From: Thermoplasmatota archaeon
Lineage (GTDB): Archaea; Thermoplasmatota; E2; JACPAO01; JAHFTW01
Direction of reading: 5' to 3'
DNA: 64,000 nt
NCBI GenBank assembly: GCA_041601615.1
Contig: JBFIHX010000003.1
Location: 1-64,000, forward strand
Below, in pieces: positions 3,145 to 62,919 of this stretch. The notes under the pieces are model-generated. The model had not been told where the DNA came from. It ran no database searches and worked only from the letters and a program-made list of their open reading frames with translations. Position 1 is the first letter of the stretch; each line of letters begins with the position of its first letter. Made by a program: the position numbers and the translations under genes.

Positions 3145-3201
3145 GTGTCGGCCGGGCATCAGGGGGGAGAAGCATCAAGCGCGGTTGCCCATGTCGGCTG
3201 C

Positions 3202-37969: not shown

Positions 37970-38638
37970 GTGTTCAAACGCCTTGATCCCTTTGGGAACC
38001 CCAACGTAGGCGTCTACGCACGGGCCACCTCTACCCACCTTTTCCTGCCTCCCGGCTTGACTGACCAGAATGTGTCGGACTTCAAGGAGGCGCTCGGACT
38101 GGACGCGGTCCGCGTGACCATTGGCGGCAGCACCCTCGTGGGCAGCTTGCTGGTGGGCAACAAAAATGGCATCGTCGCTGCGGATTTCGTGCGCGAGTCG
38201 GAACTGGAGATCCTTCGTTCGACGGGTCTTGAGGTGCTTCGGCTCAAGAGCGCGCGGTTCAATGCGGCGGGCAACAACGTCCTGTGCAACGACAAGGGTG
38301 CAATTTGCCACCCGGACCTGACGAAGGGTGCGTTCAATGCGATGCAGGACGCGCTCGGTGTCGAGGTGGTGCGCGGCGAGATTGCCGGCATTTCTACGAT
38401 GGGCACGGCTGCGGTTGCAACCAATCGCGGTGTCTTGTGCCATCCTCTGACTACGGACGAGGAACTTAGTTTCATCAAGGGGGCGCTTCATGTGCCCGCC
38501 CGGATCGGGACCGTCAACCATGGCCACGGCCTTGTTGGTGCTGGACTCAGCGCCAACGACGTGGGTGTGGTGAGCGGTACTCGTACGACCGGCATCGAAC
38601 TGGGGCGTATTGAAGACGCCCTCGGATTCCTGGAGTAA
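37970..38638 (+). CDS. eif6: translation initiation factor aIF-6
   Basis: GNPNVGVY, GNNVLCND, GTVNHG, TTGIELGRIEDALG. Confidence 0.95.
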   Translation: MFKRLDPFGNPNVGVYARATSTHLFLPPGLTDQNVSDFKEALGLDAVRVTIGGSTLVGSLLVGNKNGIVAADFVRESELEILRSTGLEVLRLKSARFNAAGNNVLCNDKGAICHPDLTKGAFNAMQDALGVEVVRGEIAGISTMGTAAVATNRGVLCHPLTTDEELSFIKGALHVPARIGTVNHGHGLVGAGLSANDVGVVSGTRTTGIELGRIEDALGFLE

Positions 38639-47085: not shown

Positions 47086-48162
47086 CTACGCTGCGAGAAT
47101 CCTGCGGCATTCGGCCAAAATCTTGGACTCATCCGGCATATACCAGTGCTCACGCGCCAGCAAGGGCGTGTGGACATCGGGTGCGGCGACGAAGCCGACG
47201 GGGGCTTCGAGGGCGTAGAAGGCGTCGGATTCGTTGATGCGGCGGGTGATTTCGCTGCCCCAGCCACCGGAGCGGGGGGCTTCCTGGACGATGACGACCT
47301 TGCCGGTTTTCTTGACGGAGGCGATGATGGTTTCGCTGTCCATCGGGCTGATGGTTTGCAAGTCGAGGTAGTCGACGCTGACGCCATCGGCTTCCAGTTG
47401 GGCGACGGCCTTGTCGCAGAACCAGCGCATGGCGCCCCAGGTCACGAGCGTGAGGTCGGTGCCTTCCTGGACCACTTCGGTCTTCCTGAGTTCGGCTACT
47501 TCTTCGTCGAGGGGGACGGCTTCACGGTACTTGCGGTACAGGAACTTGGGCTCCATGAAGATCACGGGCTCGTCGCTGCGGATGGCGGCCTTCAGGAGGG
47601 CGCGTGCGTTGCGCGGGGTGCTTGGCATGACCACGGTGAGGCCGGGCGTGTGGGCGTAGTACGCTTCGCGCGACTCGCTGTGGTGTTCTAGGGCGCGGAC
47701 ACCGGCTCCGTAGGGCATGTGGATGACCATGGGGAGTTTGTGGCGGCCGTTGGTGCGCTTGAGGTAGCGGGCCATGTGCGATTCGTAGTGGTGCATCGCG
47801 TTGTAGGCGAAGCCACTGAATTGCATCTCGCCGATGGGGCGGTAGCCGGCGATGGCGAGGCCGGTGGCAGCACCCGCGATGGCCATTTCGCTAATCGGGG
47901 TGTCGAAGACGCGGTCGCGGCCGTATTTGTCAAAGAGGCCGTCGGTGAGGCGGAAGATGCCGCCGTCGCGTCCGACGTCTTCGCCGAGGATCATCACTTT
48001 GGGGTCACGGGCCATTTCTTCGTCGAAGGCCATGTTCATGGCTTCGATGAGGTTCAGTTCGACGGCGCCGGCTTCGTCGCATTCCTTCTGCTTCTTTTCG
48101 TATTGGACCTGCCAGGTGGGCTTGGTGTAGAATGGGTCCTCTTCTGCGTGAACCAAAGCCAT
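47086..48162 (-). CDS. pdhB: 2-oxoacid (pyruvate/branched-chain) dehydrogenase E1 beta
   Basis: GEDVG...GGIFR, FDTPISE, EMQFSGF, EHHSES. Confidence 0.9.
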   Translation of the reverse strand: MALVHAEEDPFYTKPTWQVQYEKKQKECDEAGAVELNLIEAMNMAFDEEMARDPKVMILGEDVGRDGGIFRLTDGLFDKYGRDRVFDTPISEMAIAGAATGLAIAGYRPIGEMQFSGFAYNAMHHYESHMARYLKRTNGRHKLPMVIHMPYGAGVRALEHHSESREAYYAHTPGLTVVMPSTPRNARALLKAAIRSDEPVIFMEPKFLYRKYREAVPLDEEVAELRKTEVVQEGTDLTLVTWGAMRWFCDKAVAQLEADGVSVDYLDLQTISPMDSETIIASVKKTGKVVIVQEAPRSGGWGSEITRRINESDAFYALEAPVGFVAAPDVHTPLLAREHWYMPDESKILAECRRILAA

Positions 48163-49268
48163 TAGTGAGCCCCCTCAGGTAGTCCGTGCTTTTCGAAATG
48201 AGCCAGAAGTTGCTCTTTTTGCCATGTCAAGTAGGGCGGCTCGTCGATGTAGGCGTTCTCGAACATGTAATCGGGAGTGCGGAGGGTTTTGGCCTTGGTC
48301 TCGAAGTCTTCGATGGCCTGGTCGATCTTGGCGTTGATGCGGGCGTCCATTTCTTCTTGCTTCTTGGCGTTCCACCAGCGTTTCTTGGTGAGGTACTTTT
48401 GGACGCGGTCGATGGGGTCTTTCTGGGCCCATTCTTCTTCCAGTGCCTTGGGTCGGTACTTGGAGGGGTCGTCCGCAGTGGTGTGGACGTTCATGCGGAA
48501 GGTCACGGCTTCGATGAGGGTGGGTCCTTCGCCGGCGCGGGCGCGGGCCACGGCGTCGCTTGTGGCTTTGATCATGGCCAGGAGGTCGTTGCCGTCCACT
48601 TGGATGCTGGGGATGCCGTAGGCGACTGCCTTTTGCGCGATGGTTTCGCTGACGGTTTGCCACTTGCGCGGGACGCTGATGGCCCATTGGTTGTTTTGGA
48701 TGACGAAGACGACGGGGGCCTTCAGGACGGCGGCCATGTTGATGGCTTCGTGGAAGTCGCCTTCGCTGGTGCTGCCGTCGCCGCCGTAGGTGATGGCGAT
48801 GTTCTTGGTGCCGTTTTTGACTTCGGCCCAGGCGGTGCCCAGTGCGTGGGTATACTGGGTGCCGATGGGGATGCAGATGGGGAGTACCTTGGCGTCGGGG
48901 GCGATGTTCATGCCCTCTTCGAATCCGGCGGCGTACAGCAGGTCGTCGACGGGGTCGGCGCCGCGGTGGAGGTAGCAGACGGATTCACGGAAGCTGGGGC
49001 AGAGCCAGTCGTCGTTGGTGGTGCAGTAGATGCTGCCTGCTTGGGCGGCTTCTTGGCCGTGGGCGGGGGCGAAGGTGCCAATGCGGCCTTGGCGTTGGAG
49101 CTTGAGGCGGCGGTGGTCCCATTGGCGGCTGAAGCTCATCAGTTCGTAGAGCTGTAGCAGGTCTTCTTTGGGCACCTTGGGGTCGAGTTTCGCGTCGACG
49201 GTGCCGTCGGCTGCGAGGATCGATAGGTGTTGAATCGGGGGTGGCGCGTACGCGGTCGTGATGGGCAT
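48162..49268 (-). CDS. pdhA: 2-oxoacid dehydrogenase E1 alpha
   Basis: QRQGRIG, GQEA, TPP motif GDGSTSEGDFHE...QNNQWAIS, HTTADDP. Confidence 0.9.
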   Translation of the reverse strand: MPITTAYAPPPIQHLSILAADGTVDAKLDPKVPKEDLLQLYELMSFSRQWDHRRLKLQRQGRIGTFAPAHGQEAAQAGSIYCTTNDDWLCPSFRESVCYLHRGADPVDDLLYAAGFEEGMNIAPDAKVLPICIPIGTQYTHALGTAWAEVKNGTKNIAITYGGDGSTSEGDFHEAINMAAVLKAPVVFVIQNNQWAISVPRKWQTVSETIAQKAVAYGIPSIQVDGNDLLAMIKATSDAVARARAGEGPTLIEAVTFRMNVHTTADDPSKYRPKALEEEWAQKDPIDRVQKYLTKKRWWNAKKQEEMDARINAKIDQAIEDFETKAKTLRTPDYMFENAYIDEPPYLTWQKEQLLAHFEKHGLPEGAH

Positions 49269-50801: not shown

Positions 50802-51701
50802 ATGAACGCAAAACACTTCATCCTCGCCATGACGCTGATGCTCGTGGGCCTCGGTTCGCCCCTCATCAATGCGTCTCCCCTGACGACTACCTCGGAGTAT
50901 CACGAATACATCCTGAACGACATGGACACGGGACACATTGATGTCATCATCATCCCGTCCGCCAGCCCCTGGGCGCTGCGCGACATCAGCACCATCGAAG
51001 ACGCCCTGCAAGGCTGGGAAGATGGCATCCAAAGCAGCCTCAGTCCTGCCTGGCTCTCCAGCGGCTTCAGCATGGACATTTACACGCTCGGCTACGACGA
51101 CATCCCATCCGATGCCCTCTCGGACCCCGAAATCGTTGTGGTGGCCGCTGAAGTCAACCCCTTCCTGTTGTTCGGCATCGGCTACGGCGTCCCCATCGGC
51201 TTCTGCAGCGCCTTCAACCCTCTGGACCCGAGCATCTGGCAGCAGCACACCGGCAGTGACTGGGCCTACGCCAGCGCCGCCTGCAAGAGCGGTGGCAACC
51301 AGTGCATTGCGCTCAACACCAACTTCCTCCACATGGACGGTCCCTTTGTCACCATCAACGGCGGCAAGGGCGAGCGCCGCATGTACGACCTCGTCGCCCA
51401 CGAAATCGGCCACTGCCTCGGCATTGGTCACGTCGGAGACGCACTGGACTTCAGCACCACGATCTTCCCGAACAAGGACATCATGAGCTACCAGTACAAC
51501 AGCAACCAAGTGTTCTGCGTCAGCAGCCTCAACATCAAGAGCCTGCAAGGAGTCTACGCGGACGCCATCCCCGGCGCCCCCAGCTCCGCGACTCAGCCGC
51601 GCTACACCGGCGGCGAATTCGTCCACCTGCCTGTCGGGGACTACAGCCAAGTATCGTGCAGCAACCCGGACAACCTCAACGATCTTCCGCCCCTCCTCTG
51701 A
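50802..51701 (+). CDS. secreted metzincin zinc metalloprotease, paralog 1 (Sec/SPI subtype)
   Basis: HEIGHCLGIGH plus Met-turn DIMSY. Confidence 0.8.
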   Translation: MNAKHFILAMTLMLVGLGSPLINASPLTTTSEYHEYILNDMDTGHIDVIIIPSASPWALRDISTIEDALQGWEDGIQSSLSPAWLSSGFSMDIYTLGYDDIPSDALSDPEIVVVAAEVNPFLLFGIGYGVPIGFCSAFNPLDPSIWQQHTGSDWAYASAACKSGGNQCIALNTNFLHMDGPFVTINGGKGERRMYDLVAHEIGHCLGIGHVGDALDFSTTIFPNKDIMSYQYNSNQVFCVSSLNIKSLQGVYADAIPGAPSSATQPRYTGGEFVHLPVGDYSQVSCSNPDNLNDLPPLL

Positions 51702-52392
51702 GTCATGGAACACCACTCCCTCACCCTCCTTCTCCCCTTTGCCATCCGCAATTTTTAATGAATTGAGAGATAAAATAACCGGGTAATGATGGGGTTAGTT
51801 ACGATTGACAACAGGGTAAAGCCTCCACCCATCGGCCCTATATCGTCAGTGCATTCTCGACCTTTGATGCAGCCACGAGCCAACATGCTCGCTTCAACCT
51901 TCCACTTGCCCGCAGCCACGACGCTCGCCCATCGGGCCGTGCAACGCGGCTCCAACACTGTCTACGCGTCCAGCGGCAACGCCGACCCCGCGTACAGTCC
52001 CAAGTTCTAACACACTGTCCCTGCCCAGAAACGACGAAAAAACCATCCTGTGGAACGCATCGAACCACCCACTGTTTCCCCCCACGGGCGATGCCTTCCA
52101 GCCTCCACCCCCTTTCCCACCACGGCCGCACCCCTCCCGCGCCGAGGCGATTTGCCTCAGGTTTCCCCCACCGAACCTGGAACGTGCGCCACCGCCACGC
52201 TATGCTCCCAGCGCCGCCTCTCCCATCGGTCCCGTCCCTGATTCTTCATCGAGGCAATCCCGTCCTCCCCCATTCTCCCTCCGGCTCCACCCTCCTCTAA
52301 CCAGTCCCCATTTGGCCGATGGGACGCACCCCATACCTGATATAGAAAGAAACGTCGGACCACACGCCGGGGCCCGCCTCGGAAGGTCCCCG

Positions 52393-53955
52393 ATGCGCTT
52401 CGATGAACTCCCCCTAGACGCCGCCACCCTCGCCGCCCTCGAATCGATGGGCTTTGAGGAAGCCACCCCCGTGCAGGCAGAAACCTTGCCCGCCCTCCTA
52501 GAAGGCCGCGACGTCATCGCCCAGGCGCAGACCGGAACCGGCAAGACCGCCGCCTTCGGCATCCCGCTCGTAGAAGCCGCCCGCAAAGGCCACCGCGGCA
52601 TCGTGCTCACTCCCACGCGAGAACTCGCCAAGCAAGTGCAACGCGAAATGCAAAGCATCGGCAAAGGCAGCCCCTTCGACGTCATCTGCCTCATCGGCGG
52701 CGCAAGCTTCCCGGACCAAGTGCGCGCACTCAACCGCCACCCCAACGCCACCCTCGTAGCCACCCCCGGCCGCGTCGTGGACCACATCGGACGCGGCACC
52801 CTCGACCTCTCTGCCATGGACATCCTTGTTCTGGACGAAGCCGACGAAATGCTCAGCATGGGCTTCCAAGACGAACTCGACCAAATCGTCGCAGCCCTCC
52901 CAGCCGAGCGCCAAACCCTCCTCTTCACCGCAACCCTCCCGCCGGCCATCGAGAAACTCGCCCGCCGAGCCCTCAAGGACCCCGTCACCATTCGCGCCAG
53001 CGGCGGCAGCGGACGCGGCCCCGCCAAGACCGTCCAGCAATGCTTCGCGCTGGTGCGCCACTCCGACCGCCCCGAAGCCGTGCGCCGCATTCTGCTGGCC
53101 GACGAACCCAAAGCCGCCCTCCTGTTTTGCAAGACCCGCGGCCGCGTCGATGACCTCGCCGAAGCCCTACGCGACGCCGGCGCCGAAGCGCTCCACGGCG
53201 GCATGAACCAAGGCCAACGCGACTCCGTCATGCAGCGATTCCGCGACGGCAAAAGCAAGCTCCTAGTCGCCACGGACGTAGCCAGCCGCGGCCTCGACGT
53301 CGAAAACGTGGAACTCGTCATCCACGACGAACCGGCCCAGGACGTAGAAACCTACATTCACCGTGTTGGCCGCACCGGTCGCGCCGGACGCGAAGGCCGC
53401 AGCATCCTCATGCTCGGCCCCGGCGGCATGCGCAAACTCAGCGCCATCCAACACGTCGCCGGACACATCCAAAAAATCGAGATCCCCACCGACGCCGATC
53501 TCTTGGCCATGCGCGCCAACCGACTCGTGGCAGATCTCGCCGAACTGGAACCCGGACCCAATGCCCAGAGCCTCCTCGACCGCGCCCTCGGCGCCGGCAT
53601 GGACTTGCGCGGCGTTGCGCTGCGTGCCCTCGAAATGCTCGTCGCAGTCGCCGCCGAACCCGAATCCGACGCCGCCGACACCGTCGACGACAACGCCACT
53701 GCCGCCCTGTGCCTCAAAGTCGGACTTGTTGACGACCTACGCCCCGGCGACATCGTCGGCATGCTCGCCAACGAAGGCGGCTTGCGAGGCGACCAAGTGG
53801 GCCGCATCGACCTCCTGCCCCGCATGAGCGTCGTCGAAGTCCCCGCCCGCGAAATGCCCCGGTTGCTTGGACAATTGGAACGCACCAAGATGCGCGGCCA
53901 ATGGATTCGACCCCGCGAGGCCGAGGACTGGCGCTTCAAGAACGCCCCCCGCTAG
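52393..53955 (+). CDS. DEAD-box RNA helicase with DbpA-type RNA-binding domain (DeaD/CsdA-like)
   Basis: AQTGTGKT, PTRELA, DEAD, HRVGRTGRAG, LRPGDIVG. Confidence 0.93.
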   Translation: MRFDELPLDAATLAALESMGFEEATPVQAETLPALLEGRDVIAQAQTGTGKTAAFGIPLVEAARKGHRGIVLTPTRELAKQVQREMQSIGKGSPFDVICLIGGASFPDQVRALNRHPNATLVATPGRVVDHIGRGTLDLSAMDILVLDEADEMLSMGFQDELDQIVAALPAERQTLLFTATLPPAIEKLARRALKDPVTIRASGGSGRGPAKTVQQCFALVRHSDRPEAVRRILLADEPKAALLFCKTRGRVDDLAEALRDAGAEALHGGMNQGQRDSVMQRFRDGKSKLLVATDVASRGLDVENVELVIHDEPAQDVETYIHRVGRTGRAGREGRSILMLGPGGMRKLSAIQHVAGHIQKIEIPTDADLLAMRANRLVADLAELEPGPNAQSLLDRALGAGMDLRGVALRALEMLVAVAAEPESDAADTVDDNATAALCLKVGLVDDLRPGDIVGMLANEGGLRGDQVGRIDLLPRMSVVEVPAREMPRLLGQLERTKMRGQWIRPREAEDWRFKNAPR

Positions 53956-54022
53956 GCTCGCGCTCGGTAGGTTCAACGCCCCTACCAGAACGCATTAACC
54001 TTCGCAGTGCGCCGTTGGGTTC

Positions 54023-54955
54023 ATGCGCGCAGTGATCTCCACCCTGCTCATGCTCATCGTGGTCGCCGCTTCCGGCTGCCTCGACGAAGAAACAGGCACC
54101 GACAGCCAAGATGGCACCACGGACCCAACGCAGGACATGGCCGATCCCGGCAGCGAACGCCGCGCCGCGTTTCTAGCCGACCATCCGACGTTCTGTGATG
54201 AAGAAGCCACCTGCGACTTCTGGGACGACGAATACCACCAATACGTCGTCTACAACCTCGACACCACCGTCATCGACGTAGTCATCGTGCCCCCCGCCGG
54301 CGGCAGCACACCCGACAACATCGCCGCAAGCCGCCTCGCCGTGCAAGCCTGGAGCGACGGCATCGAAGCCCAAGGAGCCGCCTGGTTTGCCGACAACTTC
54401 ACCATGAACGTCTACGCAGTCGGCATCGACATTCCCAGCCTCGACGCCATCGAGGACCCCGAAATCGTCGTCCTTTCTACGAGTGCGCAAAAACTCGTCG
54501 GCATCGGACTGGAGCCCAAGCAATTCGGCTGCCAAATCCTGAACCAAGGCGTCGTTGCAGACCTCGGCGGCCACGAGCACAACGGCAACCAAATCTTCGC
54601 CCAAGACTGCACCGGCATCGGCTTTACTTGCTTTGCAATCAACGTCGGAGACCTAAATGGCATTGCACTGCAAGATCTCATCGCACATGAAGTGGGCCAC
54701 TGCCTCGGCGGCGGACACGTCGGGGACGCACTCGACTTCCGAGCCCGCTACGCACCCATCGAGGACATCATGAGCTACCAGGACGACCCCACGCACGTCC
54801 ACTGTGTCAGCAATTTCGACGTGCGCGTGCTTGAAGGCGTCTATGCGCACCTGCTTGACCGCCCCGAGGAAGAATGGCTGCCCCGCGGCTCCTTCCTGCC
54901 CATGGACCCGCTGGAATACGATGCGGGCGAATGCGACAACCCGCCTGGGGTCTAG
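54023..54955 (+). CDS. metzincin zinc metalloprotease lipoprotein, paralog 2
   Basis: Lipobox ASGC; HEVGHCLGGGH, DIMSY. Confidence 0.8.
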   Translation: MRAVISTLLMLIVVAASGCLDEETGTDSQDGTTDPTQDMADPGSERRAAFLADHPTFCDEEATCDFWDDEYHQYVVYNLDTTVIDVVIVPPAGGSTPDNIAASRLAVQAWSDGIEAQGAAWFADNFTMNVYAVGIDIPSLDAIEDPEIVVLSTSAQKLVGIGLEPKQFGCQILNQGVVADLGGHEHNGNQIFAQDCTGIGFTCFAINVGDLNGIALQDLIAHEVGHCLGGGHVGDALDFRARYAPIEDIMSYQDDPTHVHCVSNFDVRVLEGVYAHLLDRPEEEWLPRGSFLPMDPLEYDAGECDNPPGV

Positions 54956-55049
54956 TCGGCCAAACAGCGCGCCTCTTGCCCCCGCGGCCGGGGCAACACT
55001 CCAACACCTCTACCAGAATCCTTTACCTCTTAGCAACGGCGTTGGGATT

Positions 55050-55958
55050 GTGCGAAACTCGCTGACCATGCTCCTCCTACTCCTGGCGCCCTTCCTCTCC
55101 GGTTGTCTTGGAGGAGCCAGCACTCTCGAAGCACTGGACGCGCCACGGGACGCCGAACGAGAGCGCAGCGAATTTCTTGCCAATCATCCCACATTTTGCT
55201 TCCTGCAATCCACCTGCAACTACTGGGACGACATGTACCACGAACGCGTCGTTTACGATCTAGACACCACCGTCCTAGACATTGTCATTGTACCTCCCGT
55301 CAACGCCCCCAATGACCAAACCGGCGCCGCCAGCCGCCTCGCGGTCCAAGCCTGGATGGATGGCATCCGAGCCCTCGGTGCCTCCTGGCTTGCAGACAAC
55401 CTCACCATGAACATCTACGTCGTCGGCGAAGACATCCCAAGCGTCGACGCAATCCCTGACCCCGAAATCATCGTGACTTCCGCAAGCCTCACCCTCACCA
55501 ACGGCATCGGGCTCGAACCCGTACAAGCCGGATGCTACGAGCTAGGCCAACTCGTCGACCAAGAGCTAGGCGGCCACGAGCACAACGGCAACCGCATCTT
55601 TGCCCAGCGCTGCGCGGAAACCAAATTCACCTGCTTTGCCATCAACGTCGGCGAACCCGAAAACATCGCCATGCAAGACCTCATCGCGCACGAAGTCGGC
55701 CACTGCCTCGGCATCGGACACGTCGGCGACGCCCGCGACTTCAAAGCCCGCTACGCCCCGATTGCGGACATCATGAGCTACCAAAACAACCCGGAGCATG
55801 TGCACTGTGTCAGCAACCTCAACGTGCGCACACTCGAAGGCGTCTACGCGCATTTGCTTGGCCGACCCGAATCCGAATGGATGCCTGCACACACCTACTT
55901 GGACATGGACCCGCTCGAATACGATGCGGGCCAATGCGACAACGCGCCTGGCGCCTAG
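55050..55958 (+). CDS. metzincin zinc metalloprotease lipoprotein, paralog 3
   Basis: Lipobox LSGC; HEVGHCLGIGH, DIMSY; closest to paralog 2. Confidence 0.8.
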   Translation: MRNSLTMLLLLLAPFLSGCLGGASTLEALDAPRDAERERSEFLANHPTFCFLQSTCNYWDDMYHERVVYDLDTTVLDIVIVPPVNAPNDQTGAASRLAVQAWMDGIRALGASWLADNLTMNIYVVGEDIPSVDAIPDPEIIVTSASLTLTNGIGLEPVQAGCYELGQLVDQELGGHEHNGNRIFAQRCAETKFTCFAINVGEPENIAMQDLIAHEVGHCLGIGHVGDARDFKARYAPIADIMSYQNNPEHVHCVSNLNVRTLEGVYAHLLGRPESEWMPAHTYLDMDPLEYDAGQCDNAPGA

Positions 55959-55987
55959 CGCAACCGTACGATCGCACGGGCACCCGC

Positions 55988-57151
55988 TTATTTCGCCCCG
56001 ATCCGATTGCGCCAAAACGGCGACGCCGCCCACCGACGCTCCAATCCATAGACGTGATGCCGGTTCTCGCGGTAAGCATCGTATTGTCGATCGACGTATG
56101 AAGCAAAATCCACCGGCACTGGCGCAGATGCCAACCTAGCCGCCACAACGCGCCCCGCAATTAGACCGTGGTTGAGGCCCTTGTAGATGCCTTGGGCCGC
56201 CACAGGATCGAAGCTGGCCGCGGCATCACCAACGGCCATCCAATCCACACCTGCCACCACGGGTAACCGCCCAGTACGGATGGACCGGGTGTGGTACGTT
56301 CGGTCTTCAAGGTCGAGCTGATTAGTGCTGGGTCCCACGAAGGAAGTCTGAGACAAGGCCTCCTCAAACCCCGCATAGTTGCCGGACCGCAGCCTGGGCA
56401 CGAACTCCTTCTCCGTCACCACCATGCTTACCACCCTGCTACTTGGCAGACGTGCATGGTACCACCACCCGTCCCGAGCTGCTTCCAATTGGACCTGCCT
56501 GGTGCCGCTCCCCTCCAAGACCGTGGCGAACCGGACCGTGGCATACAACCAGTCATCGACGACCTTGTGGATGCCCATGGCCTGGGCAAACCGCGCCTCG
56601 GGTCCAGTGGCATCCACCACAAATCGTGCATGGACCAGCTGCGCTTCTGTGCCCGCATGGTCGAGGTTGGTGCCCTGTACGGAGCTCCCACGCGCAAGCC
56701 GCAGAGCATACCCATGGCCCCCCAAGGGCTGACTCCGTTCCTCGATGCCTTGGAAACGAGTGGACCACGCCACCTGCACCCCGAGCGCTTGCGCCCGATC
56801 CAGCAGCATAGCATCGAATAGCCGCCGGTCGAGCCGCCAGGACGGCCCAAGCGGATTGACGATGAAGTCGTTGTACCCCACGCGGTCGCTGCCCCACATA
56901 GAAGCGTATCCGGGACAAGGCTCGTGGGTGGAGTTTCGAAACGCCTCAAGCACACCCAATCGATCCAGAGGTAGGACCACGTCAGGAGGGCAACTTTCGC
57001 CCATGCGTTCTTGTTCACGGGGCCCGGCGTCCACGACGAGAACAGACGCATTGGTCTCTTGGCGCACAGATATGGCGGTTGCAAGGCCGGCGGGGCCACC
57101 ACCAAGAACGACCACGTCGTACTTGGAGTTCAAGCTCGGTGGACCGGACAC
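55988..57151 (-). CDS. lodB: LodB/GoxB-like FAD-dependent CTQ maturation flavoprotein
   Basis: VVVLGGGPAG, GESCPP, LDRRLFD, VDATG, GWWY, VGDAAASFDPVAAQGI; directly downstream of lodA. Confidence 0.82.
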   Translation of the reverse strand: MSGPPSLNSKYDVVVLGGGPAGLATAISVRQETNASVLVVDAGPREQERMGESCPPDVVLPLDRLGVLEAFRNSTHEPCPGYASMWGSDRVGYNDFIVNPLGPSWRLDRRLFDAMLLDRAQALGVQVAWSTRFQGIEERSQPLGGHGYALRLARGSSVQGTNLDHAGTEAQLVHARFVVDATGPEARFAQAMGIHKVVDDWLYATVRFATVLEGSGTRQVQLEAARDGWWYHARLPSSRVVSMVVTEKEFVPRLRSGNYAGFEEALSQTSFVGPSTNQLDLEDRTYHTRSIRTGRLPVVAGVDWMAVGDAAASFDPVAAQGIYKGLNHGLIAGRVVAARLASAPVPVDFASYVDRQYDAYRENRHHVYGLERRWAASPFWRNRIGAK

Positions 57152-59235
57152 CCTTTCATCTTCTTGGGCGGGTTGGCATTGAACGGCCATTTCGGAACAG
57201 GCACGCTGGCATCGCCTGCGCGGCTGAGTTTGCTCTGGACCTCCAGGTACAACTTGGGCGAAAACGGCCCCTCACAGCAATCCACATTGGTTCCTTGCAC
57301 AATGATGCCGATCTTCTCCCAATCCGTCACCGACTGCAACGGGTCCTGGAACGTGGCTGCCGTGGCGGGATTGACAGCGTAGGTGCCGGGGCCCCGAATG
57401 GACCACTTCTGGGCCGGCAGCACATTCTTGACAACCTCCTCGGCAACATACACAGCGTCAGGACGCTGGGATGGCCACGACCAGTATAGGGTGGTGTCGG
57501 CGCCGTTGCTCCTGTTGACCCCGTCCGTGTTGATGGCGGTAGCGTGGATGGAGCAAGAGTTGTAATCCGTCTGCCACGGGATGGCCATGAATTTGGAGAT
57601 GTCCCCCGGTTCCAATCCGTCTGTCATGCCATGCAAGGGAATCCAGCCGATCCGGAGGAACGGTTTGCCCTTCTGCAATTTCTCGTAGTCCAACGGAGTC
57701 TGCTTGATGCGGAACGGACCGGCGCCCGTCGTCTTCCAGTCTTGCTGGTAAAGCTCCGGGTCCATGATGGTGTAGCTGACCTCGATGCCAGGCACATAAC
57801 GGCCGCCGAGGCAATTGGAGAGCGAGGCCATATCAAGGAATTCTCCGGGGCCAAGCCCTCGTGGCGCCCCCTTCTCAAACCGCTTCCGACTCCATTGCTC
57901 TAGGAAGAAATACTGCGTCTTGGTGACGGTCATGAAAGACGTGCCCGCCGCACCCAGGGACATGGGCATGAGCGGCAGACCGATGTTGGTCTCGTCCCTT
58001 CCCTCGAGCCACTCAGCCGGTTGTCGAATGAACGTGAGCGCCGCCATGACCGTCCGGTCGGGGTCGTCGTCTGCGGTGATTGCCTCCACGGCATCGTGGG
58101 CGCGTAAAGCCATCTCGGGGAGGTTGGCGGTCCAGCGTTGCAAGTTGGAGGCGATGAACAACGGCTTGATGTGCCGTTCAAAATTGGGCAGATACTCAGG
58201 ATTGTATTTTTTACGATCATCCGTTGGCCGAGTGGACGGTCCGAGAAAGAGGTCGGGCTGCAATTCCAACTGGCGCACGAACATGTCGTACACGTCGTCC
58301 CAAACAGACACCACGTTGCGGATCTGGGGGGCATAGGAAGGATCACCACACACCACCCATGCGCCGAATGCCTCCTCTGCGCTGCCGTCGTCGAAAACCA
58401 ACGTTACGTTCACGGGGCCATCAGAGGCCGAGTCGTACCAGCCAACATTGTTGAGGTCTCCCGTCATTTGAATCGGCACGCCGTATTCGTCGTACTGCCC
58501 AACGGCGTTGCCGGAGCTTGGCAGAACAAGCAATCGGCCTTGCTCGTCCGTGCGCAGTCCCCCAAGAGTGTCCAGCGGACCGCTGGGTTCGAACAGTTCG
58601 TCATTCATGTCTGCCGGGAAGCGGATGGGGTAGTCGGGAAGCTGCTTGATGGCGCCGGGCGATTGGACATAGGATGCTCCGGAGCATCGATCGAACTCGG
58701 CCGTTTGCTTCTCCTGCGCGCTGATGGCTCTGGGGCCGGCGTCGATCATTAAGTGCATCAATCGGTTCTCCGAGTTGATGTCCCCATGCACCTCTGGGTT
58801 TCGAACTTGAGGCACGTTGCCGTCCGCATAGGCCAAAATGCCCTTGTTGTTGACTACGTTGTATGCGGCGGCCTTCTTATTGGCCAAATGGCCCGACCAA
58901 AGCAGGTCCACCACCTCGCGTCCGTCAGGCAGCTTCGTTCCGAGGGTGACCTCCATGCCATCGCCGCTAGGGTACGCGCCGGCTCCTTCCGCGTCGTAGG
59001 CGTAGATGCGGAAGCGGGCTGCCTGCTTCTTGAGGTTCCCGTCATCGTCACGCAGTTCGGAGCTTCGAACCGGCTCATTCTCCGTTCCCGGCCGAATGGG
59101 AAGTCCGCCTGTGACATCGGTGCCCTCTTGCGGCAAACCTGCACTGGTTTCTGGCGAAAGGACAAATTCCTCGCTTGTACCAAAGCGCGCAAAATTGATG
59201 GTCGGGTGGACTCGGAAGACTGGCTTCCTGTTCAC
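57130..59235 (-). CDS. lodA: LodA/GoxA family CTQ-dependent amino-acid oxidase
   Basis: FRVHPTINFARFG, LKKQAARFRIY, HLANKKAA, GRLLVL, PGIE, MAIPWQTDYNSC (Asp/Cys), WSWPSQRP (Trp). Confidence 0.88.
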   Translation of the reverse strand: MNRKPVFRVHPTINFARFGTSEEFVLSPETSAGLPQEGTDVTGGLPIRPGTENEPVRSSELRDDDGNLKKQAARFRIYAYDAEGAGAYPSGDGMEVTLGTKLPDGREVVDLLWSGHLANKKAAAYNVVNNKGILAYADGNVPQVRNPEVHGDINSENRLMHLMIDAGPRAISAQEKQTAEFDRCSGASYVQSPGAIKQLPDYPIRFPADMNDELFEPSGPLDTLGGLRTDEQGRLLVLPSSGNAVGQYDEYGVPIQMTGDLNNVGWYDSASDGPVNVTLVFDDGSAEEAFGAWVVCGDPSYAPQIRNVVSVWDDVYDMFVRQLELQPDLFLGPSTRPTDDRKKYNPEYLPNFERHIKPLFIASNLQRWTANLPEMALRAHDAVEAITADDDPDRTVMAALTFIRQPAEWLEGRDETNIGLPLMPMSLGAAGTSFMTVTKTQYFFLEQWSRKRFEKGAPRGLGPGEFLDMASLSNCLGGRYVPGIEVSYTIMDPELYQQDWKTTGAGPFRIKQTPLDYEKLQKGKPFLRIGWIPLHGMTDGLEPGDISKFMAIPWQTDYNSCSIHATAINTDGVNRSNGADTTLYWSWPSQRPDAVYVAEEVVKNVLPAQKWSIRGPGTYAVNPATAATFQDPLQSVTDWEKIGIIVQGTNVDCCEGPFSPKLYLEVQSKLSRAGDASVPVPKWPFNANPPKKMKGCPVHRA

Positions 59236-60290
59236 GCCTCCACCTCCTGCTCCTTCACTGCGACCTGCCTAGCATCGCTGAATTTGGGTGTCACGCCGTT
59301 GATCCAGCAATTGTTGATGGCTGCTCCGACCCCTGCCATTGTTGGGAAAAAATCACCAGGATTCTCTCCACCAAACAGAGATTCAAGCAGCATGGTAAGC
59401 TCCGAAAATTGCGCAACGAGGATGTTCTGCAACCGCTGCCCATTCTCAGACTGTTCGGCCGCCGGGTCTGCCATGTGGATGTCCACGGGCTGCTTTGTTG
59501 GATCGACCAAGAAAGCCCGTCGAAGACCTCGGAACTTTTCAAAGTGGTCCTCATGAGGCTCTTTGTCGTCCGCCGTGTTCTGGAAGGCCTTGGGAACCGT
59601 CGGGTCGGATTTGGATTGCCCTTCGCCCTGGTCCATGATGAGTTGGATGAGCAACGCGACTTGGTGGAATCCAGCCGCGCCGGACTCCGTAATGGTCAGG
59701 CTTGGGGCGTTTCGGTAGAACGCAGAAAAATAGTCAATTTGGCGAACACCTCCACGGATTTGATTCTGCAACAGTTCAGCACCGTGGTAGATGGCCGTGT
59801 ACAGGGCTCCAATGGTTGGATAGTCTGCCACGTTGCTGTGAAGCAGCACACGCCGTTTGGAGACATGCTGGAGTAGGACATCCCCCACGCCGTCGGCGTC
59901 GTCTATGAATTCAGGCAACTCCACGAGGCACATGGCGTTGATGTGCTCCAAGTCAAGCGGGCCGATTTGCGCCACGTATGGTGTGAATTTCGCAGTCACT
60001 GCCGGGTTATCCTTGCCAAAATCCAAGTGTGGGACCTTCTTTCCTTCGTAGGTCGGTGGCGACACCGTGGGGGAAAATCCGTATGCGTTGGCGAGGTTTG
60101 CTGCACACTGTAGATGCAGCATCTCTTGGTTGACTACCGTGCGGATCATTTGGTACGCCGGGGTGGAACGATCTTTGACGGAATACATCGCGGACATGTA
60201 GAATGGGATCGTCCAAAGCTCGAGGTCGAATGCCGCTTGGATGTGTTCACGGAGATTCTGGATTGTCCAGTTTTCATTGTGCAGTTGCAT
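59232..60290 (-). CDS. ferritin-like (VioB/RebD-type) di-iron domain protein
   Basis: LELWTIPFYMSAMYS, QEMLHL, TIGALY, IMDQGEG, HFEKF; GTGA overlap with lodA. Confidence 0.8.
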   Translation of the reverse strand: MQLHNENWTIQNLREHIQAAFDLELWTIPFYMSAMYSVKDRSTPAYQMIRTVVNQEMLHLQCAANLANAYGFSPTVSPPTYEGKKVPHLDFGKDNPAVTAKFTPYVAQIGPLDLEHINAMCLVELPEFIDDADGVGDVLLQHVSKRRVLLHSNVADYPTIGALYTAIYHGAELLQNQIRGGVRQIDYFSAFYRNAPSLTITESGAAGFHQVALLIQLIMDQGEGQSKSDPTVPKAFQNTADDKEPHEDHFEKFRGLRRAFLVDPTKQPVDIHMADPAAEQSENGQRLQNILVAQFSELTMLLESLFGGENPGDFFPTMAGVGAAINNCWINGVTPKFSDARQVAVKEQEVEA

Positions 60291-60713
60291 GGATTGATTC
60301 CCCTACCGCCGCCAACAATGACCGATTCGAACCAAGCGAATACGAAACTAGAAGGTTGAAAAGCGGATTCATCAAGACGCAGCCTGTAGGTTTATTTGAA
60401 TCTAATCGCATGTATGCAAAGGGCCGATGGTTTCAGATTTCTAAACACGAAGATGCGGACATGCTCTCCAGCCCATCCTGAAATTCCCGGGCAAAATTCG
60501 ATGAAGGGACTTGTTGGAAATGGTTGGGGCTCCGCGACAAAAAAGGGGGTCTGCCTTTCCATCGCGCAGAGGTGCCCAGTTCCCATAGCCCAATGTGTCC
60601 AGGCTCCTCAGGCAACTTGGCTTCCAGAGCTTCTTTGCCACCTGCCCTCGTTTTGACTTCCCATCAATGGCTTCACCAGAACGCATAAGCACTCACCCAC
60701 CGCCCCGCGTCCG

Positions 60714-61754
60714 ATGCGTTTCGTGGCCTCCGCCCTTCTGCTTCTTACTCTGACCTTCTCCGGTTGCCTCCAAGCAGGGAACGGCAACGGCTCGGACGCC
60801 CTAGACCGTCCCGGTGGATTGCCCCGGGACGGATGGACCGATTCCCAATTCGATTGGACCGGCCTCAATACCACCTACCCCTATGATGCACTGGTGCAAT
60901 ACTGCGTGGACGCCGGCAACTGCACCTACTGGGACGGCCAATTCCACGAAGGCGTCGTCTACGAACTTGACACCCTCATCATGGACGCCGTCGTCCTGCC
61001 TGTACCTGGTGTAGACACCATGGCGGCTACCCGCGCCGCCGGACAAGCGACCGCCGCCTGGGCCGACGTCAATCAGTTTGCCGCCCCCTGGTTCGTGGAC
61101 GCCTGGCACCTCAATACCTACGTTGTGGGCGACGGCATTCCCAGCGCCGATTTTGTCACGGACCCCGAGATCATCGTGGTCAGCGAATCCGGCCAACGCA
61201 GCACCAGTATCGGACTCAACCCCGAACAAGTCGCATGCACCGTGCTCAACGATTTCCCACTCCCACCCGTTTCACCGCCCCTTGAACCCGGCACCCTCGC
61301 CACCAAAGTTTACCCCGTCCACGAACACGACGGCATGGCAATCTTTGCCGCCGAATGCATCACAGGTGGTTTCCGCTGCGCCGCGCTGAACTTTGCTAGT
61401 GCACTTGGAGGCACCAACGGCCTATACGGCCTCGTGGCGCACGAAGTCGGCCACTGTCTGGGCCTCAGCCACGTTGGCGACGCTCTGGACTTCAACAGCC
61501 GCTTCGTTCCCACTACGGACATCATGAGCTACGCAAACAACCCAAGCAAAGTGCCCTGTGTTAGCACCCTCAATGCCCGCGTCATGGAAGGAATCTACGC
61601 CGAACTTGCCGGACAAGAAGCGCCGGAATGGATCCAGAACGGAACGCGCTTTGCCATGGGCCCGTGGGACTTCAAGACCGTGGATTGCAAGAACCCCGAA
61701 CCGGCCATCATTTGCTGCAACGATGAGCCCCGCCCCGAGCGCGGCCACGCCTGA
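60714..61754 (+). CDS. metzincin zinc metalloprotease lipoprotein, paralog 4
   Basis: Lipobox FSGC; HEVGHCLGLSH, DIMSY. Confidence 0.8.
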   Translation: MRFVASALLLLTLTFSGCLQAGNGNGSDALDRPGGLPRDGWTDSQFDWTGLNTTYPYDALVQYCVDAGNCTYWDGQFHEGVVYELDTLIMDAVVLPVPGVDTMAATRAAGQATAAWADVNQFAAPWFVDAWHLNTYVVGDGIPSADFVTDPEIIVVSESGQRSTSIGLNPEQVACTVLNDFPLPPVSPPLEPGTLATKVYPVHEHDGMAIFAAECITGGFRCAALNFASALGGTNGLYGLVAHEVGHCLGLSHVGDALDFNSRFVPTTDIMSYANNPSKVPCVSTLNARVMEGIYAELAGQEAPEWIQNGTRFAMGPWDFKTVDCKNPEPAIICCNDEPRPERGHA

Positions 61755-62016
61755 AGCGCTCCGCAGAGCCTCCTCTTTCGCCTCCTAGCTCCTTGGCCCA
61801 CGCCCCACAACGGCCCCGCCTAGCGAGAGCTGCATCAAGCACTCCGCGACCCCGAGTCCCCGATCCAATCCCGCCCTTGTTCGCGTAATGGACACCTTGA
61901 TTGCAACCCTGCACCAATTCAAATCCATCTGGTTCAGTAAATAATTGATTGGCCCAATACACATTATCGTTCATCCCGAGATTTGTGTTAAATGCTATAG
62001 GCCAATCATCCTGGGC

Positions 62017-62919
62017 ATGTATACACGTACATCCATCGCCGCAGCGTGCCTGCTGACCGTGGCCTTTGCCGCCCCCGTCCTCGCAGCCACCTTCAACGAC
62101 AACAACTACCACGAATACATCCTGTACAACGTGGACACGCCCGAAATCGATGTCCTCATCGTCCCGCCCGCCTCCCCCTACTACGCCCGCGACATCCACA
62201 ACATCGAGCAATCGGTGCAAGCCTGGGAAGACGGCATCAACGAATTGGCCCCCGCATGGCTCGCCGACGGCCTCAACATCCACTACTACACCCTCGGATA
62301 CGACGACGTGCCCGAAGCCGCCCTCGCCGACCCCGAGATCGTCATCTTCAGCGCCGAATACAACCCCGTCCTGCTGTTGGGCATCGGCCTCGCCGCCCCC
62401 GTAAACCTGTGCCACGGCCTCGATCTCTTCGAATCCGCAGCACTGCACCAACACGAAGGCAGCCCCTGGGGCGTATTCCACAGCGAATGCCGCGCAGGAG
62501 GCTACCAATGCACCGTCGTCAACACCAACTTCCTCTGGCTCCCAAACGCCGGCAACGAACGCGAGATGTACGACCTCAATAGCCACGAATTCGGCCACTG
62601 CCTCGGCATCGGACACGTCGGCGACGCACTCGACTTCTCAGCCCAAAACTACCCCTCGTCGGACATCATGAGCTACCAACAAAACCCCAACCAAGTACAC
62701 TGCGTCAGCTCCCTCAACATCCTCGCACTCGAAGCCGTCTACGGCGCCTTGCTTGGACACTCCAGCCTGCACAAGCACTCCGGGAGCTACGTCCACATGA
62801 GTCCAGGTGGCTACGAGCAAGTAGACTGCAAGAACCCCACAAATCCAGCACTCACCAACATCGCCGCAGCCACACCGCTAGGCCACTCGCACCCGACGCC
62901 CGGAAGCACCATCTGGTAA
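62017..62919 (+). CDS. secreted metzincin zinc metalloprotease, paralog 5 (Sec/SPI subtype)
   Basis: HEFGHCLGIGH, DIMSY; YHEYIL and ERxMYDL shared with paralog 1. Confidence 0.8.
   Translation: MYTRTSIAAACLLTVAFAAPVLAATFNDNNYHEYILYNVDTPEIDVLIVPPASPYYARDIHNIEQSVQAWEDGINELAPAWLADGLNIHYYTLGYDDVPEAALADPEIVIFSAEYNPVLLLGIGLAAPVNLCHGLDLFESAALHQHEGSPWGVFHSECRAGGYQCTVVNTNFLWLPNAGNEREMYDLNSHEFGHCLGIGHVGDALDFSAQNYPSSDIMSYQQNPNQVHCVSSLNILALEAVYGALLGHSSLHKHSGSYVHMSPGGYEQVDCKNPTNPALTNIAAATPLGHSHPTPGSTIW

Follow-up and report, generated by a model that had tools for sequence, protein, structure and literature searches.

Introduction

LodA/LodB of Marinomonas mediterranea combine an L-lysine epsilon-oxidase with its flavoprotein maturase (PDB 2YMW, 3WEU). 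The characterised lod operon consists of lodA and lodB, a ferritin-like gene being absent by description. In LodA and GoxA, the first tryptophan hydroxylation precedes the action of LodB and is believed to proceed autocatalytically with the help of copper. GoxA/GoxB, a glycine oxidase system (PDB 6BYW and others), also lacks a ferritin-like partner. In Caulobacter, genes CC_0555-0557 are arranged in the order ferritin-like, LodA-like and LodB-like; CC_0556 is a 'group IB' LodA-like gene and CC_0557 encodes a ferritin-like protein (PDB 3HL1). A PF12902 gene was already recorded beside fungal lodA-like genes, and this is the sole mention of such a gene next to lodA-like/lodB-like genes that was found in the literature, as given in passages of PMC4417212.

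The locus described here has the Caulobacter gene order and is carried by a Thermoplasmatota archaeon. The window, i.e. the whole stretch of DNA analysed, comprised 64,000 nt of contig JBFIHX010000003.1 (GCA_041601615.1). The cassette is genuine, was acquired horizontally and belongs to a three-component LodA subfamily that is still uncharacterised. Taken as a whole, it is likely a self-contained bacterial three-gene module that a marine archaeon, itself uncultured, received by horizontal transfer into its chromosome, where it separates two native paralogues of a tandem family.

Results

Organization of the locus

The operon and its 5′ region comprise the following features:

55988-57190, minus strand: LodB-like FAD flavoprotein gene (400 aa), presumed CTQ maturase
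57130-59235, minus strand: LodA-like CTQ quinoprotein oxidase gene (701 aa, GTG start)
59232-60290, minus strand: ferritin-like protein gene (352 aa), operon gene 1, PF12902, CC_0557/3HL1 type
60291-60713: non-coding stretch (423 bp) separating the operon from the divergent gene on its right flank

The three overlapping ORFs, all on the minus strand, were found where the first-pass annotation had placed a ferritin-like/LodA/LodB operon, and the Pfam and NCBIfam assignments agreed with it. The GTG start of the LodA-like gene overlaps the stop of the upstream ferritin-like gene by 4 nt, and the LodB-like and LodA-like genes overlap by 61 nt. The operon promoter is presumably located within the 423-bp stretch. 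The last ~30 nt of this stretch matched intergenic DNA of a same-genus relative (G002) by sequence comparison, and no blastn match to it was obtained in 61 bacterial loci or elsewhere in its own genome. The GC content was 0.50 in the interval 60000-60499, which covers part of the stretch.

The LodA-like protein matched the Pfam families LodA_N (E 3.8e-51) and LodA_C (E 6.1e-36). Its best NCBIfam match was LodA, with 259 bits for an equivalog cut-off of 600; GoxA gave 144.7 bits (cut-off 750). The LodB-like protein matched FAD-binding and Trp-halogenase-type Pfam families, NCBIfam maturase_LodB (3.6e-61, 207 bits, cut-off 400), GoxB (2.9e-49) and QhpG (1.7e-36), and, in the PDB, halogenases, CmlS and QhpG (7ctq). 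Its residues 30-35 form a GxGxxG motif and all the family-invariant residues were kept in an alignment with 26 orthologues. As none of the LodA, GoxA and LodB scores comes near its NCBIfam equivalog cut-off, functions were assigned at the family level only.

Assembly and host

The host is an archaeon, as the first-pass annotation had proposed: an archaeal SSU fragment is present on contig C2, no bacterial SSU was matched, and the aIF6 and DUF531 genes lie in the same window as the cassette. The assembly is of the metagenome type, in 30 contigs, and the closest homologues of the cassette are bacterial, as would be the case if the archaeal location were an assembly or binning chimera. This is extremely improbable. 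The cassette lies at 56-60 kb inside a 346-kb contig of uniform GC that carries aIF6, and the DNA on either side of it is collinear with that of a same-genus genome. At the junctions, whose read continuity the annotation had singled out for verification, independently built Logan contigs from three other samples (X2, X3 and X4) run through on both sides without a mismatch at the junctions, and word depth is flat at 26.8 across both of them in X1, the possible source sample, which belongs to the same study.

Insertion and bacterial ancestry

The inserted DNA and the genes on either side are as follows:

54804-55958, plus strand: left-flank native gene, tandem-family predicted lipoprotein metzincin-like protein, HEVGHCLGIGH
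55959-60690: inserted DNA, approximate extent (~4.7 kb), absent from same-genus genome G002
60714-61754, plus strand: right-flank native gene, paralogue of the left-flank gene, lipobox-like N-terminus, HEVGHCLGLSH

G002 (contig C67) aligned to positions 52367-55898 and 60873-61618 of the window with 77% DNA identity. Between these collinear blocks there are ~230 bp in G002 versus ~4975 bp in the cassette-bearing genome. Genome G001 is also devoid of the cassette. Homologues of the left and right flank genes were found in 29 and 30, respectively, of 32 genomes of the family. Metzincin Pfam matches of both flank proteins were sub-threshold, and translation of the left-flank gene probably begins inside the annotated frame, near residue 89. 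The insertion is marked neither by a target-site duplication or inverted repeat nor by a mobility gene.

The closest homologues of the LodA-like protein, at the top of the 120 matches listed, share 72-76% identity with it; every organism name among these 120 is bacterial, most rows being nameless. The LodA tree places the archaeal protein within a clade of nine rows from five bacterial phyla (SH-aLRT 100), and of 401 genomes sampled from the archaeal phylum, this one alone has a LodA of the ferritin-linked type. The cassette was thus acquired horizontally and is of bacterial ancestry, in agreement with the transfer suggested by the first-pass annotation.

Its compositional foreignness is modest: the cassette GC (0.582) is within the lowest 8.5% of genome windows and the tetranucleotide distance is at the 85th percentile. 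The less biased codon usage noticed earlier was recovered relative to the immediate flanks, C3/(C3+G3) being 0.48-0.55 in the cassette and 0.74-0.82 in the eight genes around it. The cassette is not alone in this within the window, because three other native genes (aIF6, AAA ATPase and ADH) score 0.36-0.56. LodA-like genes in archaea are not restricted to this cassette. A second LodA/LodB pair is present on another contig of the same genome, LodA-like genes occur in two genomes of the same archaeal family, and a Nitrosopumilus-labelled bin contains a distant LodA/LodB pair.

Conservation of the module in bacteria

In a survey of 61 genomic loci, a full-length ferritin-like gene was found just upstream of LodA in 48 and a LodB match downstream of LodA in 58 (two of them partial). 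When metagenomic loci were examined from the ferritin-like side, LodA was directly downstream in 57/60 and LodB was present in 33/33. The ferritin-like gene is linked to LodA elsewhere and is a clade-specific third component. No further flanking gene was conserved beside the trio across 46 loci, and this includes tailoring, export and resistance genes. The trio is not an archaeal invention: a large clade of bacterial LodAs, Caulobacter (CC_0557, 3HL1) among them, has this arrangement as its usual one.

CTQ residues and substrate of the oxidase

LodA of the PDB was matched by the LodA-like protein with E 4e-45 (single sequence) and 1e-117 (profile). Both the D-x3-C motif and the downstream tryptophan pointed out in the first-pass annotation are present, in WQTDYNSC (residues 554-561) and WSWPSQRP (residues 585-592). 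D557 and C561 align with Asp512 and Cys516 of LodA and, in the profile alignment, W587 aligns with Trp581; all three were invariant in 29/29 aligned LodA-like sequences. From these alignments, C561 and W587 are identified as the CTQ-forming residues, with D557 conserved beside them.

Residues Cys448, Gln519 and Lys530 of LodA hold lysine (PMC10851380). The aligned positions are V481, H564 and R575, and R575 is not conserved within the ferritin-linked clade. The archaeal protein groups with those of Caulobacter and Marinomonas MED121 ('group IB'), and an unpublished observation quoted in PMC4417212 reports no lysine oxidase activity in group IB cultures. The substrate is probably neither L-lysine nor glycine, because of this grouping and of the absence of the lysine-holding residues.

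Ferritin-like protein and predicted binding to LodA

The ferritin-like protein matched PF12902 (E 1.1e-33) and, by sequence, PDB 3HL1 (E 1e-79). Its AF2 model (pLDDT 88.5) was similar to 3HL1 with both Foldseek (E 5e-23) and VIA-align (Z 36.8, rmsd 1.7 over 279 residues). Residues E24, E56, H59, E124, E223 and H249, putative metal ligands, were invariant among 25 orthologues. The protein is probably an iron-type di-metal four-helix-bundle protein. An archaeon-specific 14-residue insertion of low pLDDT is located at 130-143. In Caulobacter, CC0556-57 are down-regulated when iron is limiting and when fur is mutated (PMC3751524). Carbon-starved cells of a sigT mutant also show altered expression of both genes, by factors of 2.78 and 2.00, given with no direction for each gene (PMC3073932).

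Complex prediction for the LodA-like and ferritin-like proteins gave ipSAE values of 0.76, 0.77 and 0.75 in three runs (best control, 0.00), a score that expresses model confidence and is not a measurement. Contacts agreed by at least 67% between runs and partner pLDDT was at least 79. The mark applied is reached by 116/157 solved complexes and 2/215 mismatched pairs, counts that hold only roughly because self-made alignments were used. PDB searches with the two sequences retrieved no common entry, although other chains of an entry are not listed; this speaks against the prediction being a copy of a solved complex. On the LodA side, the interface segment around TIMAGL (393-402) has an identity of 0.52 in ferritin-linked LodAs versus 0.57 overall, and of 0.18 versus 0.35 overall in LodAs without a ferritin-like partner; by this comparison, it is conserved in ferritin-linked LodAs. 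A 5-residue insertion of the archaeal LodA-like protein (407-411) lies inside the predicted interface. The models suggest that the ferritin-like protein probably binds the oxidase and, with the conserved linkage, make the third component proposed by the first-pass annotation plausible.

Discussion

By extension from LodA/LodB and GoxA/GoxB, the LodB-like flavoprotein would complete the oxygenation of Trp587 in the LodA-like precursor and cross-link it to Cys561 to give cysteine tryptophylquinone. The mature oxidase would then convert the primary amine of an amino acid or a related compound into an aldehyde, ammonium and H2O2. The ferritin-like protein, docked on the oxidase as predicted, may handle its oxygen/peroxide chemistry at the enzyme, removing or using H2O2. 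This role is preferred but unproven and is proposed by analogy with other LodA-like proteins, in which a catalase domain is fused to the oxidase. It is hard to square with the Caulobacter homologue, which reportedly contributes to H2O2 production in biofilms (as cited in PMC4417212).

The ferritin-like protein could instead serve cofactor biogenesis, as a di-metal oxygenase that binds the precursor of LodA and adds the first hydroxyl to Trp587. Its predicted direct binding to LodA, the six invariant Glu/His on its bundle and its strict linkage to one LodA clade are in line with such a role, as is the LodB/GoxB substrate, a mono-hydroxy-Trp precursor whose origin is without an assigned enzyme (PMC7876137). 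However, LodA and GoxA mature without such a partner, the clade has kept as an invariant residue the Asp to which autocatalytic biogenesis is ascribed (D557), and hydroxylation of a protein side chain by a PF12902 protein has no biochemical precedent; we regard this alternative as rather unlikely. A biosynthetic module, in which the imine or aldehyde made by LodA is coupled or oxidised by the ferritin-like protein in the manner of VioA/VioB or RebO/RebD, is clearly less probable. An amino-acid oxidase and a PF12902 protein are indeed paired as in VioA/VioB, PF12902 clusters are auto-named 'iminophenyl-pyruvate dimer synthase domain', and a template search for VioB had 3HL1 as its closest result, with 19.85% identity (PMC9705886). 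Yet the ferritin-like protein is a single-domain protein of 352 aa, a search for longer fused forms gave one weak match and no such form, and the trio is not accompanied by conserved tailoring, export or resistance genes. VioB is a haem b protein (PMC9705886), whereas the invariant residues found here suggest a carboxylate-bridged metal site.

The cassette might also be silent or decaying passenger DNA, unexpressed from archaeal promoters. Its presence in a single sampled genome of the phylum, its codon usage, which differs from that of its neighbours, and the insertions unique to the archaeal ferritin-like protein (14 aa) and LodA (5 aa, in the predicted interface) are compatible with this, but the three frames are intact and all the family-invariant residues are retained. 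The terminal LodA branch (0.28) does not exceed those of its bacterial clade mates (0.15-0.28), and the DNA identity of only 70-73% to the nearest bacterial loci implies that the genes have either stayed long in the archaeon or come from a donor outside the sample, and that they have not decayed. Inert DNA is therefore unlikely, somewhat less so than the biosynthetic module.

Comparison with known systems

The archaeal oxidase has the same two Pfam domains as LodA of M. mediterranea. It can be aligned with LodA over residues 7-587, with Asp512/Cys516/Trp581 conserved, and a lodB-type gene is directly downstream in both. The oxidase differs from LodA by its bit score, well under the equivalog cut-off, and by V, H and R in place of Cys448, Gln519 and Lys530. 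Family and CTQ residues are also shared with GoxA/GoxB, the match to GoxA being far weaker. Tat signals are frequent in GoxA-group proteins (PMC4417212) and none is evident in the archaeal LodA-like protein.

In VioA/VioB and RebO/RebD, an amino-acid oxidase is likewise paired with a PF12902-containing chromopyrrolic-acid-type synthase. The archaeal oxidase is a quinoprotein, not a flavoprotein, its PF12902 protein is small and single-domain, and downstream pathway genes are absent beside the trio. The analogy with VioB rests on the common Pfam domain, the sole shared feature. Some LodA-like proteins carry a catalase-like (PF00199) or a PF14518 iron-redox domain in the same chain; the oxidase is thereby permanently tied to a haem/iron redox module, for which immediate H2O2 detoxification was proposed (PMC4417212; bioRxiv 10.64898/2026.03.27.714854). 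In the archaeon, the iron-type module has a ferritin-like fold and is a separate polypeptide, no fusion having been found. The fungal 'group V' genes, by their description (Campillo-Brocal et al. 2015, PMC4417212), resemble the cassette by the neighbouring PF12902 gene, but are separate, with lodB in the opposite orientation, unlike the archaeal operon. The Caulobacter locus is in a bacterial host and its proteins lack the extra archaeal insertions. CC_0556 and the archaeal protein nevertheless belong to the same ferritin-linked LodA clade, and the two loci share 46% identity for LodA and ~43% for the ferritin-like protein.

Gene layout and family assignment

The cassette consists of three overlapping, co-directional ORFs on the minus strand of the window, between positions 55988 and 60290. 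The first-pass annotation had placed a ferritin-like/LodA/LodB operon at these coordinates; both the positions and the gene content were correct, as judged from Pfam and NCBIfam families, overlapping genes and intact cofactor residues. The genes are as follows.

59232-60290, minus strand: P0001, ferritin-like protein of 352 aa, first gene of the operon.
57130-59235, minus strand: P0002, LodA-like oxidase of 701 aa, with a GTG start and a 4-nt overlap with the upstream stop.
55988-57190, minus strand: P0003, LodB-like flavoprotein of 400 aa, with a 61-nt overlap with the 3' end of the LodA gene.

P0001 was assigned by Pfam to PF12902 (Ferritin-like) as a single-domain protein (E 1.1e-33; 117.4 bits, cut-off 22.3). 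P0002 contains LodA_N (PF17990; 174.6 bits, E 3.8e-51) and LodA_C (PF18417; 123.8 bits, E 6.1e-36), both over their Pfam cut-offs, and with the cysteine tryptophylquinone (CTQ) residues and the adjoining lodB-like gene it has the characters of the LodA/GoxA family. P0003 is a FAD protein of the Trp-halogenase/FAD_binding_3 kind (Pfam) with a GxGxxG motif at residues 30-35, kept along with other residues invariant across 26 LodB-like sequences. Its closest solved structures in a PDB search were flavin halogenases, CmlS and the Trp dihydroxylase QhpG (7ctq); it thus joins the CmlS/QhpG-type FAD-binding fold to an operon with a LodA-like gene, as defines LodB/GoxB maturases. The top NCBIfam models were LodA for P0002 (equivalog NF038172, 259.4 bits against a cut-off of 600) and the maturase LodB for P0003 (207 bits against 400), followed for the latter by GoxB and QhpG. 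Because these scores lie under the equivalog cut-offs, both proteins are best classed, from their sequences, as family-level members and not as equivalogs of the characterised enzymes.

Archaeal host and insertion site

The host genome, 2.79 Mb in 30 contigs and an estimated 93% complete, contains an archaeal SSU fragment, and the bacterial SSU model found nothing in it. The window, the first 64 kb of a 346-kb contig, also has genes for aIF6 and a DUF531 protein. Both flanking genes are members of a tandem family that was found in 29/32 and 30/32 genomes of the same archaeal family.

An empty site was present in a genome of the same genus (G002:C67), with about 77% DNA identity to window positions 52367-55898 and 60873-61618. 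The aligned blocks are separated there by about 230 bp, versus about 4975 bp in the window. In a second same-genus genome (G001), the cassette was absent beside the right-flank gene. Continuity was checked with independently built Logan contigs from four sequencing runs of one study (X1-X4, of which X1 may be the source of the window DNA). These contigs span 55703-61500. The left junction was bridged by records from X2 (55703-56678) and X3 (55696-56267), and the right junction by records from X2 (60423-60726), X3 (60435-61500) and X4 (60449-60814). No mismatch was seen at the junctions and X1 word depth was flat. A chimeric assembly is very unlikely because of the collinearity with the empty site and the zero-mismatch Logan contigs across both junctions; the continuity of the contig, which the first-pass annotation had left to be confirmed, is well supported.

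The junction regions share no direct or inverted repeat of at least 8 nt. Upstream of the operon lies a spacer of 423 bp (60291-60713) that matched neither the bacterial loci nor any other part of the genome. It is non-coding, lower in GC (about 0.50), and on the minus strand has a run of C and then a run of T near 60540-60560. Five tandem paralogues, all on the plus strand, lie around the cassette (50895-51617, 54023-54955, 54804-55958, 60714-61754 and 61945-62919); the start of the 54804 ORF is probably an internal Met. The encoded proteins share a lipobox-like N-terminus and the motif HEVGHCLGxxH, with metzincin Pfam matches below threshold, and from these sequence features they may be secreted zinc peptidases. 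At the corresponding G001 locus (G001:C305, 4640-9119 of L081), a DEAD-box helicase gene lies between two paralogues, so that the local gene order is rearranged compared with the window and with G002.

Bacterial ancestry of the cassette

Among the 120 listed LodA homologues of P0002, all organism names given by the sources were bacterial, most rows being without a name. The best identities were 72-76%. Homologues include Acaryochloris, Litoribacillus, Litoribrevibacter, Hahella and Tenacibaculum, and Pontibacter, Shewanella, Endozoicomonas, Marinomonas MED121 and others were also named among the top rows. In a quick tree of 56 rows, P0002 fell within an SH-aLRT-100 clade of nine rows from five bacterial phyla. 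This clade is not resolved internally, so the donor cannot be named; the closest loci are only 70-73% identical at the DNA level.

Among 401 sampled genomes of the phylum, this type of cassette was found in the host genome only, two others giving short weak matches. PF17990 was detected in 3/61 relatives including the host, and the other two proteins resemble the second LodA/LodB pair on host contig C8. The 2015 survey, in the text available, counted LodA-like genes in 0 of 602 archaeal genomes (PMC4417212). In the portions of the literature searched, including that from 2015 onward, no report of an archaeal LodA-like member was found. The horizontal acquisition proposed by the first-pass annotation is well supported by the empty site in G002, the bacterial homologues and the placement of P0002 within the bacterial clade.

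Composition was rejected as proof of transfer, its signal being only modest, and the case was therefore built on synteny and phylogeny. By GC content (0.582) the cassette ranks in the lowest 8.5% of windows, and by tetranucleotide distance it reaches the 85th percentile. Its genes have C3/(C3+G3) values of 0.48-0.55, versus 0.74-0.82 in eight neighbours. The weaker codon bias reported earlier thus holds against these neighbours but is not unique to the cassette, three other native genes having values of 0.36-0.56. Window-wide, Pfam-supported native genes fall into strongly C-ending (0.74-0.82) and balanced or G-ending (0.36-0.56) third-position classes, as with 3145-4191, 28654-30012 and 37970-38638 contrasted with 21126-24112 and 47086-49268.

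Two insertions in the archaeal copy were absent in all aligned bacterial orthologues: P0001 130-143, an acidic 14-residue loop of low model confidence, and P0002 407-411, a 5-residue AEWLE insert within the predicted interface segment described below. The C8 pair (about 29.7-33.2 kb of the contig; 5673-9196 of L070, minus strand) is about 30% identical to P0002; its LodA-like frame is 800 aa long, with LodA_N beginning at residue 173, and a ferritin-like gene is absent. Two genomes from a different genus of the same family, G012 and G017, carry similar genes, and the LodA-like frame of G017 reaches 1046 aa, with an N-terminal extension of about 400 aa that has no Pfam match. A bin titled Nitrosopumilus sp. 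(L066, 75-3030) carries a LodA-like/LodB-like pair 27%/25% identical to P0002/P0003, on a contig of 8.8 kb whose thaumarchaeal origin is given by the bin label alone.

Conservation of the three-gene module in bacteria

Sixty-one genomic loci, among them that of Caulobacter (L049), were collected with P0002. A full-length ferritin-like gene was directly upstream on the same strand in 48 of the 61, and one more was partial. Two of the 12 loci without it have no upstream sequence and the other ten hold the remotest LodA relatives (27-46% identity). A LodB match was found downstream in 58/61 loci (two partial). When metagenome contigs were searched from the ferritin-like protein, LodA was directly downstream in 57/60 and LodB in 33/33 loci with room for it, in a set that is not representative of all PF12902 because it was fished with motifs of the LodA-linked subfamily. 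No fourth conserved neighbour was found across 46 loci; the three genes are therefore the unit, which fits the size of the archaeal insertion.

The co-occurrence survey envisaged in the first-pass annotation thus bore out the linkage. The same counts did not sustain its view of a novel system: the locus is an archaeal copy of a widespread, uncharacterised three-component LodA subfamily. In the available text of the 2015 survey, a PF12902 neighbour is noted only for five fungal lodA-like genes (PMC4417212).

Presence of the ferritin-like gene requires two changes on the tree, one of which involves long branches of unsure placement. The long-branch C8 paralogue, a Thermoanaerobaculia protein and the Nitrosopumilus-labelled protein fall in the ferritin-linked clade, with their placement flagged as unsure. 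In a Lysobacteraceae bin (L062, 5986-9166), a LodA just outside this clade has a similar interface segment (TILGGL) and no ferritin-like gene within 6 kb upstream; this could reflect a recent loss or an unlinked partner.

Cofactor residues and substrate

D557 and C561 of P0002 aligned with LodA Asp512 and Cys516 in a pairwise HMMER comparison with the LodA crystal-structure sequence, and W587 (the Trp of 'ywsWP') aligned with Trp581 in a profile of 29 LodA-like sequences. All three residues are invariant in 29/29 aligned sequences; the CTQ residues are thus intact, as had been read from the window alone.

To our knowledge, only two enzymes have been characterised among LodA-type quinoproteins, and P0002 was rejected as an equivalog of either. 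As a strict L-lysine epsilon-oxidase LodA ('group IA'), it would have to pass the cut-off of 600 bits of which it reaches 259.4, and the lysine-binding positions are replaced: those of LodA Cys448, Gln519 and Lys530 are V481, H564 and R575, and R575 has no conservation inside its clade. These LodA residues hold the lysine or gate the active site, according to the part of a review available (PMC10851380). As a glycine oxidase GoxA (equivalog NF038173), P0002 reaches 144.7 of the 750 bits required. The available text of PMC4417212 puts the Caulobacter and Marinomonas MED121 LodA-like proteins in 'group IB', in which lysine oxidase activity was not detectable. P0002 is 69% identical to a protein that one source names MED121_12495 and shares an SH-aLRT-95 clade with the Caulobacter protein, in a tree without groups IA, IC and ID that was our own and not built on the reference set of Campillo-Brocal et al. 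2015.

Fold and predicted complex of the ferritin-like protein

P0001 matches PDB entry 3HL1, the ferritin like protein CC_0557 of Caulobacter vibrioides, by sequence (E 1e-79), and its AF2 model (pLDDT 88.5) superposes on it with Z 36.8 and an rmsd of 1.7 over 279 residues. By both Pfam and fold, it is of the PF12902 CC_0557 (3HL1) type. Residues E24, E56, H59, E124, E223 and H249, putative ligands of a Glu/His site such as di-iron or other di-metal carboxylate proteins have, are invariant across 25 orthologues, which also share an NTA motif (238-240) and C328-W329. Against bacterioferritin, Dps and Mn-catalase the model gave Z 9-11.4, where about 13 is advised for helical bundles (VIA search), and its likeness to these proteins is suggestive. 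Foldseek hits beyond 3HL1 were chance-level helical membrane proteins only.

The prediction of a complex between LodA (5-672) and the ferritin-like protein (8-338) gave ipSAE values of 0.76, 0.77 and 0.75, versus 0.00 for the best control, with at least 67% of contacts common to the runs and a partner pLDDT of at least 79. The ipSAE mark is reached by 116/157 solved complexes and 2/215 mismatched pairs, counts that are approximate here because our own alignments were supplied. No PDB entry was common to the LodA and ferritin-like sequence searches (the entries' other chains being outside the listing), evidence against the model having reproduced a solved structure. On LodA the predicted interface is 373-422, with the 'TIMAGL' segment, which is conserved in ferritin-linked LodAs and diverged in the nine without the partner: interface identity is 0.52 versus 0.18 (overall 0.57 versus 0.35). 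The ferritin side includes 240-241, A240 being part of the invariant NTA motif. Stretches within the predicted contact surface are LodA 393-402 and residues 286-294 and 319-327 of the ferritin-like protein. The model supports binding of the two proteins. A search among longer proteins for a ferritin-LodA fusion, which is weak evidence, returned none, with one weak match (a 669-aa PF12902 protein, 22% of the query).

Proposed function and comparison with known systems

From the LodA/GoxA literature (PMC7876137, available part), LodB would take a precursor with mono-hydroxy-Trp587 through the remaining oxygenation and the cross-link to give CTQ. The mature oxidase would then convert a primary amine into an aldehyde, ammonium and H2O2. 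For the first hydroxylation of the cofactor we know of no enzyme in LodA and GoxA.

Three candidate roles were weighed for the ferritin-like protein and ranked tentatively. Oxygen or peroxide handling at the enzyme ranks first, by analogy with catalase-domain fusions and with a proposal in bioRxiv 10.64898/2026.03.27.714854 (available part). Placing the first hydroxyl onto the cofactor Trp ranks second. VioB-like coupling chemistry, which the first-pass annotation had suggested as an alternative to peroxide self-protection, ranks third, and P0001 was rejected as a VioB/RebD/StaD-type imine-dimer (chromopyrrolic acid) synthase: it is a 352-aa single domain with a quinoprotein partner, and the searches gave no long fused relatives and no conserved pathway genes.

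Beyond this ranking, a broader reading is put forward tentatively, as one that we hold to be rather unlikely in full. The ferritin-linked clade would be a distinct three-component quinoprotein system with a di-metal ferritin-like subunit bound to the CTQ oxidase. The subunit would install the first cofactor hydroxyl, or a two-cofactor (CTQ and di-iron) enzyme would consume its own H2O2 in a second reaction. All three genes would move together from one bacterial phylum to another and into the archaeon, and fungi would have the same gene association.

The locus is a clean and sharply delimited transfer of a complete module from bacteria to an archaeon. It also points to a large LodA subfamily, as yet uncharacterised, that is invariably accompanied by a ferritin-like protein with a solved structure (3HL1). 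Its most interesting feature is this conserved subunit, a predicted LodA binder. The predicted complex bears on two questions: by what route the first oxygen reaches the CTQ Trp, and how cytoplasmic oxidases that release H2O2 are kept harmless. Through the Caulobacter orthologues, the subfamily is open to experiment in a standard laboratory organism. Transcriptome papers list Caulobacter CC0556-57 as a pair, with lower expression under iron limitation and in a fur mutant (PMC3751524) and altered expression in a sigT mutant (PMC3073932), according to the available parts of these papers; no bacterial literature linking the ferritin-like protein to LodA function was found.

The module differs from two kinds of known system. 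VioB/RebD/StaD synthases are large multi-domain haem proteins that work with a flavin L-Trp oxidase in a pathway cluster (for VioB, the available part of PMC9705886). Other LodA-like proteins are instead fused to catalase-like or PF14518 iron-redox domains, as described in the available text of PMC4417212.
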